Assembly (NCBI RefSeq): GCF_006345805.1
Contig: NC_043003.1
Location: 69,316,001-69,380,000 of the forward strand
Length of the DNA stretch: 64,000 nt
DNA from: Octopus sinensis
Taxonomy: Eukaryota
Reading direction: 5' to 3'
Below, one piece after another: positions 8,503 to 64,000 of this stretch; the stretch's first letter is position 1; each line of letters starts with the position of its first letter. The translations under genes and the position numbers were made by a program. The notes beneath the pieces were generated by a model that did no database searches, had not been told where the DNA came from, and worked only from the letters and a program-made list of their open reading frames with translations.

Positions 8503-8683
8503 CAGTTTTATATTTAAGAGATGAGTAATTATGTACATTATTTACATTATTTACATTTGACGGATATTTGTCTTCATCTTGTTTGTTGTTAACACAACGT
8601 TTCGGCTGATATACCCTCCTGCCTTCATCAGGTATCTTGGGGAAATTTCGAACTTGGGTTCTCGTTCCTAAGGTATTTTTCGA

Positions 8684-8717
<34 letters not shown>

Positions 8718-8836
8718 ATTCAGGTCACTGCCTGGAATCGAACTCGGAATCTTGGAGTTAGTAACCCGTGCTCTTAGCCACTACGCCATACGCTACTAAC
8801 CCCCAGATTCTGAATTCGATTCCAGGCAGTGACCTA

Positions 8837-8885
<49 letters not shown>

Positions 8886-9030
8886 GTAACATAGAAAAAA
8901 ATACCTTAGGAATGAGAACCCAGGTTCGAAATTTCCCCCAAGACACCTGATGAAGGCTGGAGGATATATCAGCCGAAACGTTGTGTTAACAACAAACAAG
9001 ATGGGGACAAAAAATCCGTCAAATGTAAAT
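8503..9030. mobile_element. tRNA-head/hammerhead retroelement, inverted double copy
   Basis: Minus-strand full unit 8503-8790 abuts plus-strand partial unit 8793-9030. Hammerhead motifs at 8591-8636(-) and 8942-8987(+). Imperfect TSD ATAGTTCTTTTT / AAAGTCCTTTTT. Confidence 0.8.
8942..8987 (+). ncRNA. Minimal type I hammerhead ribozyme motif
   Basis: GACAC-CTGATGA-A-GGCTG(loop)CAGCC-GAAA-CG-TT-GTGTT: stem I, conserved core, stem II, palindromic ACGT stem III and a GUU cleavage triplet. Confidence 0.78.
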
Positions 9031-9370
9031 AAAGTCCTTTTTATTGCGTGCTTTTTCACTGCAATACTGATCGCAATTCTGTGGACCCTGTTTACGTGTG
9101 GTTTGTGTTGTTGTTGTTGTTATTTTTCCTGTATTACAAATGCTCTGCGTAAACCATGTGACGTACCTAGCACTTCTATTTTCTGTATATTATGCATTTA
9201 TTCGTAAACCCTGGAGTTCAGCTTATGTATTTGTCCGTATGTTCTTCCACCACACCCAAAGCACTTATTATTGCCTTGTTTATGTTTTCAGGCTCCGCAT
9301 TCGCGTTATCTTTCTTTCCAGATCTTTGCATGTTGATAGTTTTTGTATTTTATTCCCAGCATATAGGTGT

Positions 9371-13725: not shown

Positions 13726-13937
13726 GAATAACGGTCCAGCAAGAAACAGCTGAAATAAACGACCATCGCCCTATGGCTGCCTGTGTGCAGAGTCAAAGCT
13801 GATGGTTTCAAGCGGCGTCTTCTACATGTCCCGGTTGCCCTTTTCCCTATCAGTATTGGACTTATGAAGAAAGTGCGATGGTGTCAGAGCTGGTGTCTTG
13901 GTTTGTTGACCAACTAGCATGATGACTATTATCATAT

Positions 13938-14080
13938 CGTACATTATTTACATTTGACGGATATTTGTCCTCATCTTGTTTGTTATTAACACAACGTTTC
14001 GGCTGATATACTCTCCAGCCTTCATCAGGTGTCTTAGGGAAATTTCGAACCTAGGTTCTCATTCCTCAGGTATTTTTCGA

Positions 14081-14162
<82 letters not shown>

Positions 14163-14255
14163 TGACTGCCTGGAATCGAACTCGGAATCTTGGGGTTAGT
14201 AGCCTGCGCTCTTAACCTCTACGCCATATTATTTCAGAAGTGAAATATAGAACTG
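13938..14255 (-). mobile_element. tRNA-head/hammerhead retroelement
   Basis: Head (A/B boxes) at about 14165-14228, (AAT)n tract, intact hammerhead 13988-14033(-), short inverted terminus AAATATAGAACTG ending 14255. TSD TATTATCATAT at 13927-13937 and 14256-14266. Confidence 0.85.
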
Positions 14256-14827
14256 TATTATCATATTGGTTAAATGTTTGTGCAGAGCTGGTCTCACTCT
14301 TTCGTCCTGCAAACTCGTATTGGCCCGGTGCCAATGCTACGAGTAAAGTAGTTACCAAGATGCAGATTTTGTATAGAGTTAGCTTCTTTCAGATGAGCAG
14401 ATAAAGAGCTAAAGGGCCTCATCTGCTTTGGCTGCGTTGGGAGTGTCTGTGAGAAACGTTCTTCCAGAGGCCATCCTGTGGCACGCTAATTAACGCATAA
14501 CTGGAGCACTGACAGGTGTTACTACTCGGGGTCAGAGAGAACTGGGAACAACAATTGCTAAGAGGTCATTCTATACACCTCAAAACCCTGCAACATCCGA
14601 AAGAGACTATTACTTAAAGAAATACAAGGACACTCGTGATCCCAGCCAGTTACCCGGTTTACCACCCGCTTTCATTCTTAATCGATTATTCATGTAAAGT
14701 ATATTGTGGAAGTGTTGGTAACTGTTGCTCTATTCACTCAAAAGAAGTGAAACCTCTGCTTTTTAAATTATAGCGACTGGAGAAACAGCCATTTTTTATT
14801 AAGTGGAGGAAACTCACTGTCATGTAT

Positions 14828-29500: not shown

Positions 29501-29636
29501 CTACGCATTTCGGTCGAAAAAAATTCGGTGGAACCCCTATTCGGTCTACATTCGCGAAGAAATATCAAATTCTTATTATTATTATTCCGAGCTCGATTCC
29601 AGGCAGTGACCTGAATAATAATAATAATAATAATAA

Positions 29637-42207: not shown

Positions 42208-42447
42208 GTGTGTGTGTGCATGACTATTTGTGCCCCGCTACTACTTGACAACCGGTATTGCTATGTTGGTGTGTTTACGAACCGTAAGCTAGGGGTTCGG
42301 CAAAGTAGACCGATAGAGTAAATACCAGGGTTTCTTTTTCTTAAAAAAAAAAAAGAGAGAGGTACTGGATTCGATTCAATTGACTTAAAATGGTTCGTCG
42401 TAGTGTCGAAATATAGCCGCAGTCTAATGATTCAAATAAAATGTTTA

Positions 42448-42520
42448 CGACCACGACGAGACTCGAACTCGCAATCTTCTGATTCGAAGTCAGACGCCTT
42501 ATCCATTAGGCCACGCGGCC
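42448..42520 (-). tRNA. tRNA-Arg(TCG), intact, intronic and antisense to FoxN
   Basis: Reverse complement GGCCGCGTGGCCTAATGGATAAGGCGTCTGACTTCGAATCAGAAGATTGCGAGTTCGAGTCTCGTCGTGGTCG (73 nt) folds into a full cloverleaf with anticodon TCG and A/B boxes. A TTTT terminator follows at 42441-42438. Confidence 0.95.
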
Positions 42521-45500
42521 AGTCGAACGATTCACGCATTTTATGTAAGTTAGCACAAACGTAATGTCCTCATAGTGAAGTAAGAGATTTTTCGCAGTGA
42601 AAATAAATTTCAGCGTATGCGTTAAGAATCAACTGTTTTCATTGAAAACGGAAGAGAATAGACTTTTGTGATGATCTATGGCGAAATGTTTTTTAGTCAC
42701 TGGTAAATGGGGTGAATAGGTGGGAATTATGATATTTTGAAGTAGCTTTTACCAGGAGTCGAAATCCTCAAGGTTGTTAAGATAACAGGGTAACGCTGCT
42801 AGCAGGATAGACAGGAAGGAAGATGAGAAGAAATAAGATAAAACACGTTAAGATACAGTGAAATGGGGGTGGGGGATGAAATAAAATAAAATAATGTAAA
42901 ACAATAAACAGGTGGTAGAGTACAAAATTTAATTTTCTGTACTAAACTCCAGCTTGTTGCCTGAGACACACCAATACATTATCTACGGTTGTTAAGGACT
43001 GGATTTTAAAGAATACTTTCAAATCTATACTCTTTTTACTCTTTTACTTGTTTCAGTCATTTGACTGCTGCCATGCTGGAGCACCGCCTTTAGTCGAGCA
43101 AATCGACCCCAGGACTTATTCTTTGTAAGCCTAGTACTTATTCTATCGGTTTATTTTGCCGAACCGCTAAGTTACGGGGACGTAAACACAACAGCATCAG
43201 TTGTCAAGCGATGTTGGGGGGGGGGGACAAACACAGACACACACACATATATATATATATATATAAATCAAGGGTCTTCGACCATTTTTTGGTTATGCAC
43301 CCCTTTCATTACTATTTTATTCTAGTGGAGCCCAGTAGCCATTTGATGCTTAAAAAATAGTTTTATAGAAATGGCTTTCAAAATTCCTATTTTGTTTTTT
43401 ACACATTCCCTGTGTAGGCTGAACCATGTAAAATATTAGAGAAACAAACCCAGCTGTTTCTTGCAAAACATACCAAAGCAAGATTTTTTAAGGGTCCTTA
43501 AAAAACTATTGCGGATACCCAATTTACTATCTTGTTAAGTTGACACCCCACCCCCCAAAAATCTTATATGGACCCTTAGGGGCCATGTGGAAGCCGTTTG
43601 AACCACTGCTATTAATAATAGCAAGGAAATATAGGGTTGAAAAACCTTTTTTTGTATAGAAAAAGTCGAAGGCTTCCCGTGGGCACACTTTCAACTTTTA
43701 CTGTCATTTTTATCATGGTAGAATTCTGGATTTCGAAGCATACAGCTATAAATAACAGCATGTAAATGCTTGATTGAAAAACCCTTATGGGTAGGAAAAA
43801 ATTGAAGGCTGCCCGTTTGAACTCCAATCCACATTTTTGACTTTTTCTCTTCAAAAAGGTTTTTGAACTCCATATTTTTCACGCTGTTATCTATAGCTTT
43901 ATATGTGTGCTTCGCGGTCCACCATAGCAAAAACTAAAGTTTATAAAACGAAAGTTTACAAAATGTTTATTTTATCGTAATGTTTTATTATTTTAGGTGG
44001 AGTTCTTTTGTTTATCGTTTTGGAAATTTGGATAAATCTTTTAATTTCTTACGAAAAATAAGTATTAAAATAATTAGTGTGGGAGAGCGAATTTGGACGA
44101 ATTTCTCTGACAACTCCTTTAAGGCAAGCTGAAGGCCACTGTGTAGTAATTTGACCTGCTAGAAATTATAGCTAAAACTCAAACTACACCATAACTTTTA
44201 TTTAAATCCTTTTTTTAATGGAAAATCATTTGAATAAATGCAATCCTGGATGCATCGGTGTCCGAGAGAGAGAGGAGGAGTGGAGACAGAATGGGAGGGG
44301 AGAGAGACTGTATAGTCATGGTTCGAGTGCCTTCTTTGGTCGTGGGTCTTCTGGGTCACGATTGATTTGGGACCTCAGCAACGACTAATGGACTTTCGCT
44401 GTCCTCTTTCTTCTACTCCCTTCGAAAATTTTAAATAAATAAATAGAAGCAGAAAGAAGTCAATGCAGCCTTGCCTGTCCCTGTCCCTCTTTGCCCTCTT
44501 CCCCGTCACCAACGCAACATACAGCTACAATGTCATCATCACTATTATCAGATACAGCAAAACTTTATAGTCTTTCTCCCCCACCACCACCACCACTACT
44601 TTCCTTTCGCCTCTTTCTCAACGTCGTTGGCATACTCATACACACACACACACGTTTATACAAAGGCACACATACGTACACATGACAGCACGCACACACG
44701 CATATACAAAGGCACACATACGTACGCATAAGCGCACGCACACTTGGATATACAAAGGCACACACACGTACACATAAGCGCACATGCACACACAAACACA
44801 CACACAATAAGCTTTCTTCCTCACTTTGTCACTTTTTTTCCTCCGCCGCCTCTTCCATCATACACAAATGTCGCTGGCATACACATACGCACTCATACAC
44901 ACAAATACATACATGCGCGCGCGCGCACTCTCACAAACCAGTTATTCCCCCTTCCTCTCATACTTACTCTCTGGTGACACTACTCCAACACTACTACTAC
45001 TACTATAACGACCCAATGAAGAAGTCTTATGTGGTCGCGCGAAATGCTAGAAACAGCAGCAAACTATCTTAAATAACATTCATCGTCATATAAGAGGAAA
45101 GGATAGATTAGACAATATAATCTTTGATAAACTTTAGAAAGATATGATTATAACAGATGAAATACGTTGCTTGATTAAGATCTCGCCGGGGTTAAAACAA
45201 AAGCAACAAATTTAAAAGAGGTTTCTTCGTTTGTTTGCTTTTTCTTGAGCCCCAAGATTCATTTGGCCGGTTACTCGTTTTCCATAGCTTATACATGACC
45301 CAAGATCGTAACATTTCTGGAGAAAGGGACACCGGTCCGTTGCAGGATTCAAAGCCAGTAATTTTGAGAGGAATGACAGGTCGACTACATCGGCTCCAGT
45401 ACTTGGTTAGAACTCTTGTCTATCGACTCCTAAAGGATTAAAGACAAAGGCGACTGCGGCGGGATTTGAACTCAGAACGTAAAGAGTTGGGAAGAAACAT

Positions 45501-52398: not shown

Positions 52399-52669
52399 AA
52401 ACAAATATTTGTTTGTTTGCATTTATACACATATGGTTGTTCTATAAAGCTAAAGTATTTAGCATCTAATCCAGGGGATAAATTTGTCAGTGGGCAGCTT
52501 AGCTTAATAATAAAGCATTCATCTGGACTATTAAGAGATATGGGTTCAAGTCCCATGGCTGGTTGTTGACAAATTTTTCTGCCTTGTAGGGGTAATTTAT
52601 CCAGTATTTCTACTGTTTTAATGGCAACTCTGCATTTGAAAATAAATATCATCTTCTTATTTGTATCAT

Positions 52670-54821: not shown

Positions 54822-55140
54822 AGGGCGCGTGGCTTAGTGGTTAGGGCATTCGGCTCATGATCGTAAGGTTGTGAGTTCGATTCCCGGCGACGCGTTGTGT
54901 CCTTGAGCAAGACACTTTATTTCACGTTGCTCCAGTCCACTCAGCTGGCAAAAATGAGTTGTACTTGTATTTCAAAGGGTCAGCCTTGTCACTCTCTGTG
55001 TCACGCTGATTATCCCCGAGAACTACGTTAAGGGTACACGTGTCTGTGGAGTGCTCAGCCATTTGCACGTTAATTTCACGAGCAAGCTGTTCCGTTGATC
55101 GTATCAGCTGGGACCCTCGTCATCGTAACCGGCGGAGTCT
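54822..55140 (+). mobile_element. tRNA-derived SINE with CORE/Meta-like body and shared 3' tail
   Basis: TGGCTTAGTGGTTAGGG...GAGTTCGATTCCC head, GTGTCCTTGAGCAAGACACTTTA body, tail matching 38050-38230. Confidence 0.75.
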
Positions 55141-55982: not shown

Positions 55983-56162
55983 ATACATTATTTATATTGG
56001 ATGGATATGTGTCATCTTGTTTGTTGTTACCACGTTTCGGCTGATTTACTCTCCAGCCTTCATCAGGTACCCTGGCAGAATTTTAAACCCAACCCTGGGT
56101 TCTCATTCCTAAGGTATTTTTTTGCTGCTGCTGCTATTACTATTATTATTATTACGATTATT

Positions 56163-56211
<49 letters not shown>

Positions 56212-56867
56212 TCATCATCATCATCACATCATCATCATCACATCATCATCATCACATCATCATCATCATCATCATCATCATCAGTCCGCTTTCCATGCTA
56301 GCATGGGTTGGACGGTTCAACTGGGGTCTGGGGAGCCCGAAAGCTGCACCAGTCCAGTCAGATCTGGCAGTGTTTCTACAGCTGGATGCCCTTCCTAACG
56401 CCAACCACTCCGAGAGTGTAGTGGGTGATTTTATGTGCCACCGACACAGGTGCCAGACGAGGCTGGCAAACGGCCACGCTCGGATGGTGTTTTTTATGTG
56501 CCACCGACACAGGTGCCAGACGAGGCTGGCAGACGGCCACGCTCGGATGGTGTTTTTTATGTGCCACCGACACAGGTGCCAGATGAGGCTGGCAAACGGC
56601 CACGATCGGATGGTGCTTGTTACGTGCCCACAGCACGGAGGCAAGTCGATGCGGTACTGGCTACGGCCACGTTCGGATGGTTTTGTTGTGTGCCACGTGC
56701 CACCGGCACTGGTACCACAAGATATTTATTATTAATATTTATTCAAGGCACTTGCCTGAAATTGAACTCACAATCTTGGGGTTATGGTAACAACAAACAA
56801 GATGAGCACACATATCCATCCAATGTAAACAATGTACAGAATACCTCATCTGTGAAATATAGAACAG
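55983..56867 (-). mobile_element. Older tRNA-head/hammerhead retroelement with a nested SINE in its microsatellite
   Basis: Degenerate hammerhead at about 56030-56070, partial head at about 56740-56785, inverted tail 56788-56867. TSD TTTGTATGAGG at 55972-55982 and 56870-56880. Confidence 0.72.
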
Positions 56868-57191
56868 TATTTGTATGAGGTGGGGTGCTGAAAAGTTCCT
56901 GCCTTTAGGTGTATCATGAAAGGCCTGGGTGGAGGCCCAACCTTCTGAGTTCTTTTACAGGGCTTAGAAAAACCTAAAGACTGCTAAAGAACTGTCACAG
57001 TGTGTGAATCTGAGGGTGGAATATGTTAAATGAAATCATAATTAACTGATCCTCCTGTATTTTCTTTTACTCAAAACCAGGAACTTATCGTGTATTTATG
57101 TAAATCCCTGCTTAGCTCTGTCCCCCACCTTTTTTATAGTTTGTACAGTGATGACAGGTATTTTAATATAATTTGTATATTTTAATTTCAG

Positions 57192-60661: not shown

Positions 60662-62075
60662 TTAAAACAATTTTATATTTTAGTGACAGGCATGGATGGA
60701 TGGCTGAGAAGTTTACTTCCCAACATCTAGTTCCATAGTTCCACCTTCAGGTCCTTTGCATGGCATATTGGACAACGGTCATCAGCTTCAGTCCTGGGCC
60801 AACCAATTCAATGCCAGTGAAACTAGCAGATGGAAACTGTGTAGAGGTTCATCATGTGTGTGTGTGTGTGTGTGAAAATGTTGGTTTCAAATTTTGGCAC
60901 AAGGCCAGGAATTTTGGGGACGGGGAGGATCCTAGTCTATTATATCAACCCCAGTATTCTACTGGTACTTAATTTATCAACTCCCTGAGAGGGATGAAAG
61001 GTGAAGTTGACCTCAGCGGAAGTTGAACCCATGTGTGTGTATAAATGTTATTCTTTAACAAGAATGGTATTGAGTGACTTCAGACAGTCCGATGATAGCA
61101 TAGCCAGCCAAAACTTCAAAGTCACTGTCAAAAATATTCTCTATAAAAAGTATGGAATACTCCTTCAGTTTAATGTAAATTTGTTTTTAGCATAAAAACG
61201 AATACAAATTATATGTATGTGCATGTGTGTATAAATATGCATGCGTGTATATACATATATATATGCATGTATATACATACATATATGCATGTATATACAT
61301 ACATATATGCATGTATATATATATATATATATACATATATATACATATATATATATGCATGTGCATATATACATATATATGCATGTATATACATATATAT
61401 ATATGCATGTATATACATATGTATATATGCATGTGTGTATATACACAGTGTTTCTGTGAATGTTCACATTCTGTGACGTTTTCATGCAAAATCCCAACAG
61501 CAAAGGCAGTGACATTATGTTGACAATTCCCTGTCAACAAATCACTCTGTAGCTCCAGTCGTTTAAAGACTGGAAGAATAAAAATCCCTTGTAAAACAAG
61601 TAAAGGTTAGCGACAGGAAGAGCATCTGGTTGTAAAAACAATGCTTTAGCAATAAGACTTCATGTTGCCTATACCAAATGAATGTGTGTTTGTGTTTGTT
61701 TAATGTGCAAGGAGTTAAAAATTTCTGATTTGGTGCCAAGGCACACATTTAACTTACCAAAGGTAGGTTGTCCTTCACGAGTCTTCTCTACTGGAAACAA
61801 ATCCTGCGGAAGTAATCTTTTATATTGATTGTTGGAACCTCATATGTTGAGACCAACGAGAGAATCCACAAAGTTATGTATGTATATTGTTATGGTCAGA
61901 CAGTGAGAAAACCTAGTCAACAATATGTCAAAGCACATTTGTATCTCTCTCACTTTCCCTCTCTGTCTATATAATTCTTAAACAAGAATAATAACTGCCA
62001 ATAATTTTCTCATTTAAGAATAATAGATTTGTACTCCACAAAGTATAGAGCAATCCATCAGATTAATGTAGAATT

Positions 62076-62230
62076 CAGTTCTATATTTAAGAGACGAGGA
62101 ATTATGTACATTATTTACTTTATTTATATATAACGGATATTTGTCATCATCTTGCCCACAGGCATAAGGCATAGTGGTTAAGAGCGCAGGCTACTAACCC
62201 CAAGATTCCGAGTTCGATTCCAGGCAATGA

Positions 62231-62295
<65 letters not shown>

Positions 62296-62432
62296 TTGAA
62301 AAATACCTTAGGAATGAGAACCCAGGTTCAAAATTTTCCCCAAGACACCTGATGAAGGTTGGAGGGTATATCAGCCGAAACGTGTTAACAACAAACAAGA
62401 TGAGGACAAATATCCGTCAAATGTAGATAATG
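62076..62432 (+). mobile_element. tRNA-head/hammerhead retroelement
   Basis: Inverted tail 62076-62154, then head, (AAT)n and hammerhead 62344-62386 (3-nt deletion at the cleavage site). TSD TAATGTAGAATT at 62064-62075 and 62433-62444. Confidence 0.85.
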
Positions 62433-64000
62433 TAATGTAGAATTGTTTCTATTATAACTGAACATTAAGTTTAGTTTAATCCTCAGTCAAGCTCTAATTG
62501 CTAAAACTGAGGGAGAGAGAGAGGAGAAAGAAAGAGAGAAGAAATATTTTCTTTTATGATTTGCTTTGCTATCAGTCTTTATTCTCATGGCATCTACTTT
62601 TATCTAAGATATCAGTCATGTAATGATCTCGTTTGTGGCCACAAATTCATGAAGAAGGGGACACGGTGTATTAAACAAACTCATCCCACTGTTGGTACTC
62701 ATTTCATTGATGCAGAGCACTATGCCACTTGGTAAGATCTTGCTCAAGATCACTCGCTGTGGTGTAGTGCTATACTCCAGAGCAGTGCTTCTCAAACTAT
62801 CTGACGTGGCATAACCGGCAGTTTTTTTTTTTTTCAATGTGCCAGGGACCGATAATATTTCTTAGTAATATTAATTTCTGATGACAGTACCGCCTGATTG
62901 GCACTCATGTGCCAGTGGAACGTTAAAAGCACATTCAAGCGTGATCATTGCTAGGGCCATGGATTGGCTCCTGTGCTTGGTGATACGTGAAAAGCACCAT
63001 TCGAGCGTAATCGTTGCCAGTGTCGTCTTACCAGCATATGTGCCGGTGACATGTGAAAAACAACATTCGAGCATGGTCATTGCCAGTGCCGCCTGACTGA
63101 CTCCCGTGCAAGTAGCACATAAAAAACACATTTTGAGCGTGGTTGTTGCCAGAACTGCCTGACTGGCCCTCGTGCTGGTGGCACGTAAAAGCACCCACTA
63201 CACTCTCTGAGTGGTTGGCATTAGGAAAGGCATCCAGCTGTAGAAATAAACTTTGCCAGATCAGATTGAACCTGGTGCAGCCTTCTAGCTCACCAGTCCT
63301 CAGTCAAACCATCCAACCCATGCCAGCATGGAAAGCAGATGTTAAACGATGATGATGATGAATATAATAAAAGTTAACTTTTTTTTTTTATCTTATATTT
63401 ATCTTGTAAACAAATAATACAATATTACATAAGCATTTTATAATGTTTCTTTTCTGAAAACTCGCCACGTACTGAGAGCTGATGACTCGTGGACCAGCAC
63501 CGCTCAACAGACCACTGCTCTAGAGTACTTAGAGTCATAAATGTTCAGAGAAGCTAAAGAGAGGAAGGCTGCATGCAAAGACAGAGTCCCACCTGGTTTT
63601 GATTCTGTTATTACATGACGGACCCCACAACTGGAACTGTGGGTTTTGTGTCGATTTGGACTAATTGGCCACCTCAGGATACACAAAGATTAAAGCTGCT
63701 AATCTAGTCATCTTCACAAAGGATGAACATCATTTCACTGAGCCCCAACCCCTAAAAGGGACATCCCCCTATTTAATATCACTGCCTGGCCCTTTAGGTT
63801 GCCTTTAGCAGAATCTACTCTATTGCTAGATTTCAAGACAGATCTCTGGTTTCAGAAACCCTGAAAAAAAAATTGGTAGGTGATGCCCTTACACTTAAGA
63901 AAAATTTAAATAAAACACTGAGGGTGGAATGAAATAGAATCCTTATCACAGCAGAGTTTTTTTTTTTTTTTTTTTGGGTAAGCAAAAACAGCATTTCATC

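Follow-up and report, generated by a model that had tools for sequence, protein, structure and literature searches.

A stretch of 64,000 nucleotides of the Octopus sinensis genome (RefSeq assembly GCF_006345805.1, contig NC_043003.1, positions 69,316,001 to 69,380,000; here called the window, in whose own coordinates its features are given) carries at 13939-14229, on the minus strand, a short repeat in which a tRNA-derived head with the A and B boxes of an RNA polymerase III (Pol III) promoter is joined to a hammerhead ribozyme-like motif. The question raised by this locus is what kind of mobile element such a unit belongs to and what the head does in it. An earlier note, made from the letters of the window, had read the unit as a non-autonomous repeat of the kind of a short interspersed nuclear element (SINE), transcribed by Pol III and moved by Penelope-like machinery rather than by a long interspersed nuclear element (LINE). 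The comparison of genomic copies securely identifies the unit as the pseudo-long terminal repeat (pLTR) of an autonomous retrotransposon of the Penelope/Poseidon type, in which the tRNA-derived head likely serves as an internal Pol III promoter.

In its own direction, the 291-bp unit consists of the tRNA-derived head (14159-14229), an (AAT)n run of variable length (14085-14158), a 51-nt spacer (14034-14084), a minimal type I hammerhead motif recognized by sequence and fold (13988-14033), and a tail to the short 3' end (13939-13987), which is N-terminal coding sequence of a Penelope open reading frame (ORF) in full-length copies. The head covers family positions +5 to +75 (the tRNA-like sequence is numbered with plus, everything upstream with minus), with the A box at 14226-14216 and the B box at 14183-14172. 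The spacer contains the start codon predicted from the frame that is open in the column majority of the family (ATG at 14062-14060, minus strand); the frame is broken in this copy. The insert as a whole (13938-14255) is bounded by an 11-bp target-site duplication (13927-13937, identical to 14256-14266). The layout of about 290 bp described before is real, and it is not a chance arrangement, since the 2.72-Gb genome contains 4421 exact matches to a 21-mer from the 3' half of the hammerhead and none to its reversed control; genome-wide, the unit is present in thousands of copies. Two details of the earlier description have to be corrected: the A box quoted there is the family consensus, whereas this copy has TGGCGTAGAGG, and AAATATAGAACTG, rather than closing this copy on the 3' side, belongs to the long tail end and stands inverted before the head (14240-14255, plus strand). 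The sense arm of the insert stops at the short tail end.

The coding element to which the unit belongs was found from both sides. Four of 30 position-ordered copies extend upstream of the head into a common sequence, which in three of them translates as the end of a Penelope-type endonuclease. In 29 of the 30 loci found with this endonuclease-end sequence as query, the head lies about 25 nt past the end of the query (27 of 28 once two near-identical copies were dropped). Reverse transcriptase (RT) and ORF-start DNA, used as queries, recovered copies that lead from the head through spacer, hammerhead, and tail directly into the ORF. When 54 natural copies are reduced to their column majority, one open frame of 827+ aa results; it begins in the spacer, passes through the hammerhead, and ends at the endonuclease stop, located 29 nt ahead of the following head. 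The full element opens with the head, (AAT)n, the ATG-containing spacer, the hammerhead, and the tail; the RT and the GIY-YIG-type endonuclease follow, and 29 nt behind the stop comes the head again. Its RT piece matches RVT_1 (E 9e-9), and an RT-endonuclease piece is 33% identical, over the end of the RT and the endonuclease, to an 836-aa Anolis protein (P0041, which is not named PAc by its source); Pfam GIY-YIG models gave no match on two endonuclease-bearing pieces, the motif being a variant. [quoted passage not shown] Because the head stands behind the endonuclease stop (29/30) and the tail continues into the RT-endonuclease frame, the unit is assigned as the pLTR; the placement within Penelope/Poseidon is indicated by similarity and domain order. 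An autonomous Penelope element sharing hammerhead and tail, for which the earlier note had proposed to look, accordingly exists, and both parts are the first codons of its ORF. With a median identity to the majority of about 90% (113 copies), the family is old and likely inactive, and since the longest stop-free stretch seen in a natural copy measures 551 aa, it is likely extinct.

The mode of insertion agrees with this identity. The long tail end is reached by 54 of 112 arms; 49 stop 25-50 nt earlier, at a short end, and 9 stop elsewhere. The 36 inverted pairs, from 33 loci, combine one long and one short tail in 32 cases and two long tails in none. Target duplications of at least 8 bp flank 18 of the 33 inverted insertions but only 9 of 1056 swapped-flank controls. 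Inverted arms, a one-sided tail, and target duplications make up a clear PLE insertion signature, of the same kind as described in PMC8557442 and PMC3846280 (all sources are cited here for the portions available to us), where one-sided tails of 30-40 bp and target duplications of 8-10 bp are given. The claim that Penelope machinery and not a LINE is the mobilizer is thus borne out by the tails and the duplications.

The tRNA origin of the head is equally clear. Aligned with a tRNA-Arg(TCG) of the window, it scores 66.5, compared with 19.3±5.6 for 500 shuffles (maximum, 39), and both promoter boxes are intact in the family majority. The assignment to tRNA-Arg is tentative, because the head of another SINE scores 62 against the same tRNA and one true tRNA was compared. 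Octopus tRNA-derived SINEs described by Ohshima and Okada in 1994 reportedly include tRNA-Arg-derived families, one of which could be the present short unit; we know of no link of those SINEs to Penelope or hammerheads. Head and hammerhead form one unit, as the earlier note had held: in 30 loci selected by the head, the body follows directly in 22, the head lies in the inverted arm of a full copy in 5 and is linked to the body across an insertion in 1, so that 28 lie within a hammerhead/tail insertion and 2 are solitary.

The argument for a promoter function begins with the 5' ends of the copies. In 69 position-ordered loci (one segmental duplicate pair counted twice), 51 arms contain part of the head and 36 reach +8 or beyond; 30 of these stop at -17 to +8, and the other 6 continue for 79 to more than 900 nt into the upstream endonuclease. 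The group of ends at -17 consists of fold-backs, and most true ends fall at -7 to +2. The head-selected loci, 5 of which overlap the 69-locus set and which include one insertion and one duplicate counted twice, stop at -20 to +1 in 25 of 30 cases. Genome-wide counts of exact matches to 21 specified bases amount to 775 at -146, 792 at -29 to -9, and 2760 at +1 to +23, i.e., they are flat over 117 nt upstream and then rise 3.5-fold in one step at the head. Several arms that are not fold-backs end at -7 to -4, the 5' foot of a hairpin, about 14 nt ahead of the A box. Transcription from type 2 Pol III promoters starts about 14 nt upstream of the A box, which matches the 5' ends of the unit. Five ORF-bearing copies (L208, L230, L231, L235, and L244) likewise begin at the head.

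The second line of evidence is the scarcity of Pol III terminator-like runs. The family majority contains no run of four or more T's in 2764 nt of its sense strand, where four null models of the ORF expect 2.7-4.7 TTTT runs (P 0.006-0.03). Single copies have 0.38 such runs per kb, with no run present in more than 12% of the copies, whereas eight other Penelope-like ORFs of the genome with similar T content have 3.4-4.3 per kb, i.e., 8-10 each. Together, the pile-up of 5' ends and the absence of TTTT suggest that Pol III used the head as its promoter. Pol III initiation, which had been proposed from the boxes, is therefore retained as likely on this indirect evidence.

A number of observations weigh against this interpretation, and several of them favor a real rival, which we consider unlikely overall: the head would be a passive passenger that was captured once into the pLTR, the boundary would stem from an RNA polymerase II (Pol II) TATA box and initiator (Inr) at the end of the ORF or from fold-back at the palindrome, and the short copies would be 5'-truncated Penelope insertions. 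A TATA-like TTTATAA is located about 30-24 nt upstream of the inferred start and fits Pol II equally well; TATA-like boxes at -31/-24 occur in Pol III genes with A and B boxes, too (PMC10137851). TATA/Inr motifs have been reported in Penelope pLTRs, and palindromes are common at the pLTR 5' ends of Penelope elements without tRNA heads (PMC3846280). Many junctions of the octopus family fold back at the palindrome, which could raise the head count two-fold at most, and the short copies form no separate subfamily. Runs of four or more G's are absent as well (nulls, 1.0-2.9; P 0.05-0.33), so that the absence of TTTT amounts to a single modest test. The controls of this test are more distant Penelope-like families; a search with the Anolis protein for a headless Poseidon element, intended as a same-clade control, led back to the octopus family of the unit in all 30 loci checked (of 59 matches). 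In three ORF-bearing copies (L236, L253, and L258), the 5' pLTR reaches into the upstream endonuclease, from which it follows that templates starting further upstream existed. Unstranded RNA reads on locus L133 (a contig set and three raw runs obtained from a related organism) cover both strands at equal depth and show no pile-up at start or end, so that they speak neither for nor against the promoter, cleavage, or circles. Finally, an uncapped Pol III RNA would need some special route to translation, for which the R2 elements, whose RNA is cut from an rRNA transcript, offer a precedent. What speaks against the passenger scenario is that the boundary lies where Pol III starts relative to the A box, that several ends at the hairpin foot show no fold-back, that both boxes have stayed intact in the family majority, and that TTTT is missing across the whole sense strand but common in the genome's other Penelope-like ORFs. 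The Pol III promoter is hence the probable reading of the head.

The SINE character of the unit is a separate matter. It works like a SINE, yet it does not represent a family distinct from its autonomous partner that shares just a 3' end with it, because the whole unit including the head is contained in the element. Short and endonuclease-linked copies differ by no diagnostic variants (23 versus 38 heads and 17 versus 32 bodies, which are small samples), and the few columns with low P values reflect motif selection or CpG effects. If the unit were instead a separate non-autonomous SINE family that has master genes of its own and uses the Penelope enzyme in trans, this would explain the roughly 3.5-to-1 excess of head-start over endonuclease-linked copies, and short copies whose head is intact might be transcribed by themselves, but this reading is very improbable given the same head in both pLTRs, the missing diagnostic variants, and solitary heads in just 2 of 30 loci.

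The hammerhead motif (13988-14033) has a 5-bp stem I (GACAC/GTGTT), the core CTGATGA with one extra A before a 6-bp stem II, and GAAA; a palindromic ACGT takes the place of stem III, a remnant as described for dimeric minimal hammerheads (PMC4209133). It thereby shows the CUGANGA and GAAA core, stems I and II, palindromic stem III remnant, and NUH triplet of the minimal type I hammerheads of PLEs. Stems I (5 bp) and II (6 bp) are recovered by folding (z -2.2), and the cut is predicted between 13993 and 13992. Based on motif and fold, we regard it as a putative ribozyme. The scan with hammerhead models suggested in the earlier note came out negative for Rfam: no hammerhead is among the 142 matches at E≤1 in the window, and the heads have no tRNA match there. 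Conservation of the core does not exceed that of its flanks in up to 91 arms from loci chosen irrespective of the hammerhead, a comparison that is indecisive because equal decay is expected of copies decaying neutrally. The only frequent non-CpG changes concern free positions (N7, 13/77; loop II, 15/79), which lends weak support to the hammerhead, whose bases are also protein-coding. Stem covariation within the family says little on the hammerhead, as the copies descend from near-identical masters. An in-frame form lacking 3 nt has 469 exact genome copies versus 4421 intact ones and may reflect recurrent slippage or a subfamily; it is also found in the 62-kb copy of the window, where the deletion breaks the hammerhead (locus 62344-62388). 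A second hammerhead suspected in the spacer was rejected by eye, as it has no stem I partner and a core mismatch.

Several known systems share parts of this structure. The Anolis element PAc resembles the octopus element in its single ORF of RT and C-terminal GIY-YIG-type endonuclease, the pLTR-ORF-pLTR layout, the hammerhead overlapping the ORF start, and two 3' ends that bound an optional tail; there, two internal start sites of the RT account for the two ends, and hammerhead mutants insert in vitro regardless (PMC11167929). In octopus, the ATG precedes the hammerhead and the cut would follow 70 nt after it, compared with 26 nt in PAc, and neither a tRNA-derived head nor a Pol III promoter is mentioned in the text on PAc available to us (PMC11167929). 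An inverted 5' pLTR, palindromes at the pLTR 5' ends, and solo pLTRs are shared with the Penelope elements of Adineta vaga (PMC3846280) and with PLE insertions in general (PMC8557442); the A. vaga pLTR promoter was interpreted as Pol II TATA/Inr, and the portion of PMC3846280 available to us mentions no A or B boxes, which the octopus unit has. The schistosome repeats Sm-alpha and Sj-alpha also place a Pol III-type promoter before a hammerhead in a short repeat, but they are tandem, their active ribozyme frees monomers, and they are not described, in the text seen of PMC6765202, as pLTRs of a coding element, whereas the octopus unit is mostly single or inverted and has a minimal hammerhead. 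Non-LTR retrozymes are non-coding hammerhead repeats derived from PLE pLTRs as well; they are tandem arrays by definition and known from vertebrates and four invertebrates, with neither a mollusc nor a tRNA head mentioned in the accessible part of bioRxiv 10.64898/2026.07.22.740005. Head-to-tail arrays are not characteristic of the octopus unit, which forms a partial tandem in one of the 30 position-ordered loci (L097) and is single or inverted in the others. In the papers listed by full-text searches, no title or abstract opening describes a pLTR with a tRNA head or a PLE driven by Pol III; Repbase, Dfam, and SINEBase lay outside this search, and the short unit may already bear a SINE name. 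The main text of a 2026 octopus repeat annotation (PMC13282606) does not contain "hammerhead," "ribozyme," or "polymerase III," and its supplement may hold a family name. A metagenome scan for relatives gave 33 pattern matches, none of which was confirmed.

The further copies in the window all lie where the earlier note had placed them. The second copy is the long-tail arm of an inverted pair (8503-8793, minus strand), the partner of which (8792-9035, plus strand) has a short tail and a head cut at +31. A head fragment comprising +46 to +75 (29584-29613) is followed by (AAT)n up to 29688 on the plus strand. The copy at 55984-56871 (minus strand) is interrupted, with the body at 55984-56121 and a head piece at 56753-56784; its inverted long tail occupies 56781-56871 on the plus strand, an 11-bp target duplication was found, and a different repeat of tandem units of about 60 bp lies inside it (56290-56720). 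The last insertion (62072-62434, plus strand) holds a copy that starts at head position -8 (62152-62434), preceded by its inverted long tail (62072-62154), with a 12-bp target duplication. On the plus strand of the 13.9-kb copy, the antisense (TTA)n run at 14084-14160 is flanked by GT and AG splice-like signals. Concerning tRNAs, the window contains an intact-looking tRNA-Arg(TCG) gene (42447-42521, minus strand; ARAGORN; Rfam, 66.7 bits) and two further tRNA-like sequences on the plus strand (52493-52564 and 54825-54894), the latter of which runs on into a different repeat body and likely belongs to another SINE family. Elsewhere in the genome, the inferred RNA 5' end of one copy of the unit (L264:1493-1508, family head -7 to +5) folds as a small hairpin with a CACG loop, which we take to resemble the stable YNMG tetraloops.

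Other GIY-YIG sequences of the genome were encountered as well. The families found with the Pfam GIY-YIG model, tried as candidate partners of the unit, were rejected: they are other Penelope-like elements that share the hammerhead or tail in none of 30 loci and none of 20 wider stretches. They include a young family, presumably Neptune-like, with intact RT-GIY-YIG frames of 780-781 aa (L061-L065, L068, and L069), which are preceded by a frame of 479 aa in L061 and L065, and with GATTGG- and TGACGTC-rich tandem repeats on the 3' side; a hammerhead scan of these stretches gave at most one weak motif (L068). Hammerhead-like motifs unrelated in sequence to the unit occur beside other GIY-YIG families (L034:2395, oriented; L039:977 and 2319; L067:9021). 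The GIY-YIG pieces in L040 and L041 are presumably SLX1-like, and a 227-aa frame in L139 (oriented 2287-2970) is assumed to resemble a Merlin/IS1595-type transposase.

From these observations, the following life cycle may be proposed. The element RNA would start about 6 nt before the tRNA-like sequence, driven by the internal Pol III promoter, which we infer to fire from either pLTR and from short copies. Transcription from a 3' pLTR or a short copy would give SINE-like RNAs of about 300 nt, and that from a 5' pLTR would likely read through the TTTT-free ORF. By analogy with Anolis PAc, the element's own protein would nick the target and start reverse transcription at two tail sites, from which the long and the short tail end would result. 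Cleavage by the hammerhead is predicted for the dimer alone, and copying likely does not require it; a cut, 70 nt downstream of the ATG, would part the head and start codon from the remainder. In its fullest form, this model describes an autonomous coding retrotransposon transcribed end to end by Pol III, with a tRNA promoter taken into its terminal repeat and terminators purged from a 2.5-kb ORF, which would be enzyme source and own SINE at the same time; this extension is tentative, and we hold it to be somewhat less probable than its opposite.

In the textbook view, a SINE joins a Pol III head to the tail of a separate LINE, which is driven by Pol II. The presence of head and enzyme gene in one element offers a direct route by which a Penelope pLTR could give rise to a SINE-like repeat, and hammerhead SINEs such as Sm-alpha may have originated in this way. 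Repeat libraries probably divide the octopus family into "SINE" and "Penelope" entries. If the full-length RNA is a Pol III product, the element would represent a rare natural case of a protein-coding Pol III transcript, and a 300-bp fragment would allow tests of Penelope promoters, of translation without a cap, and of the role of the hammerhead.
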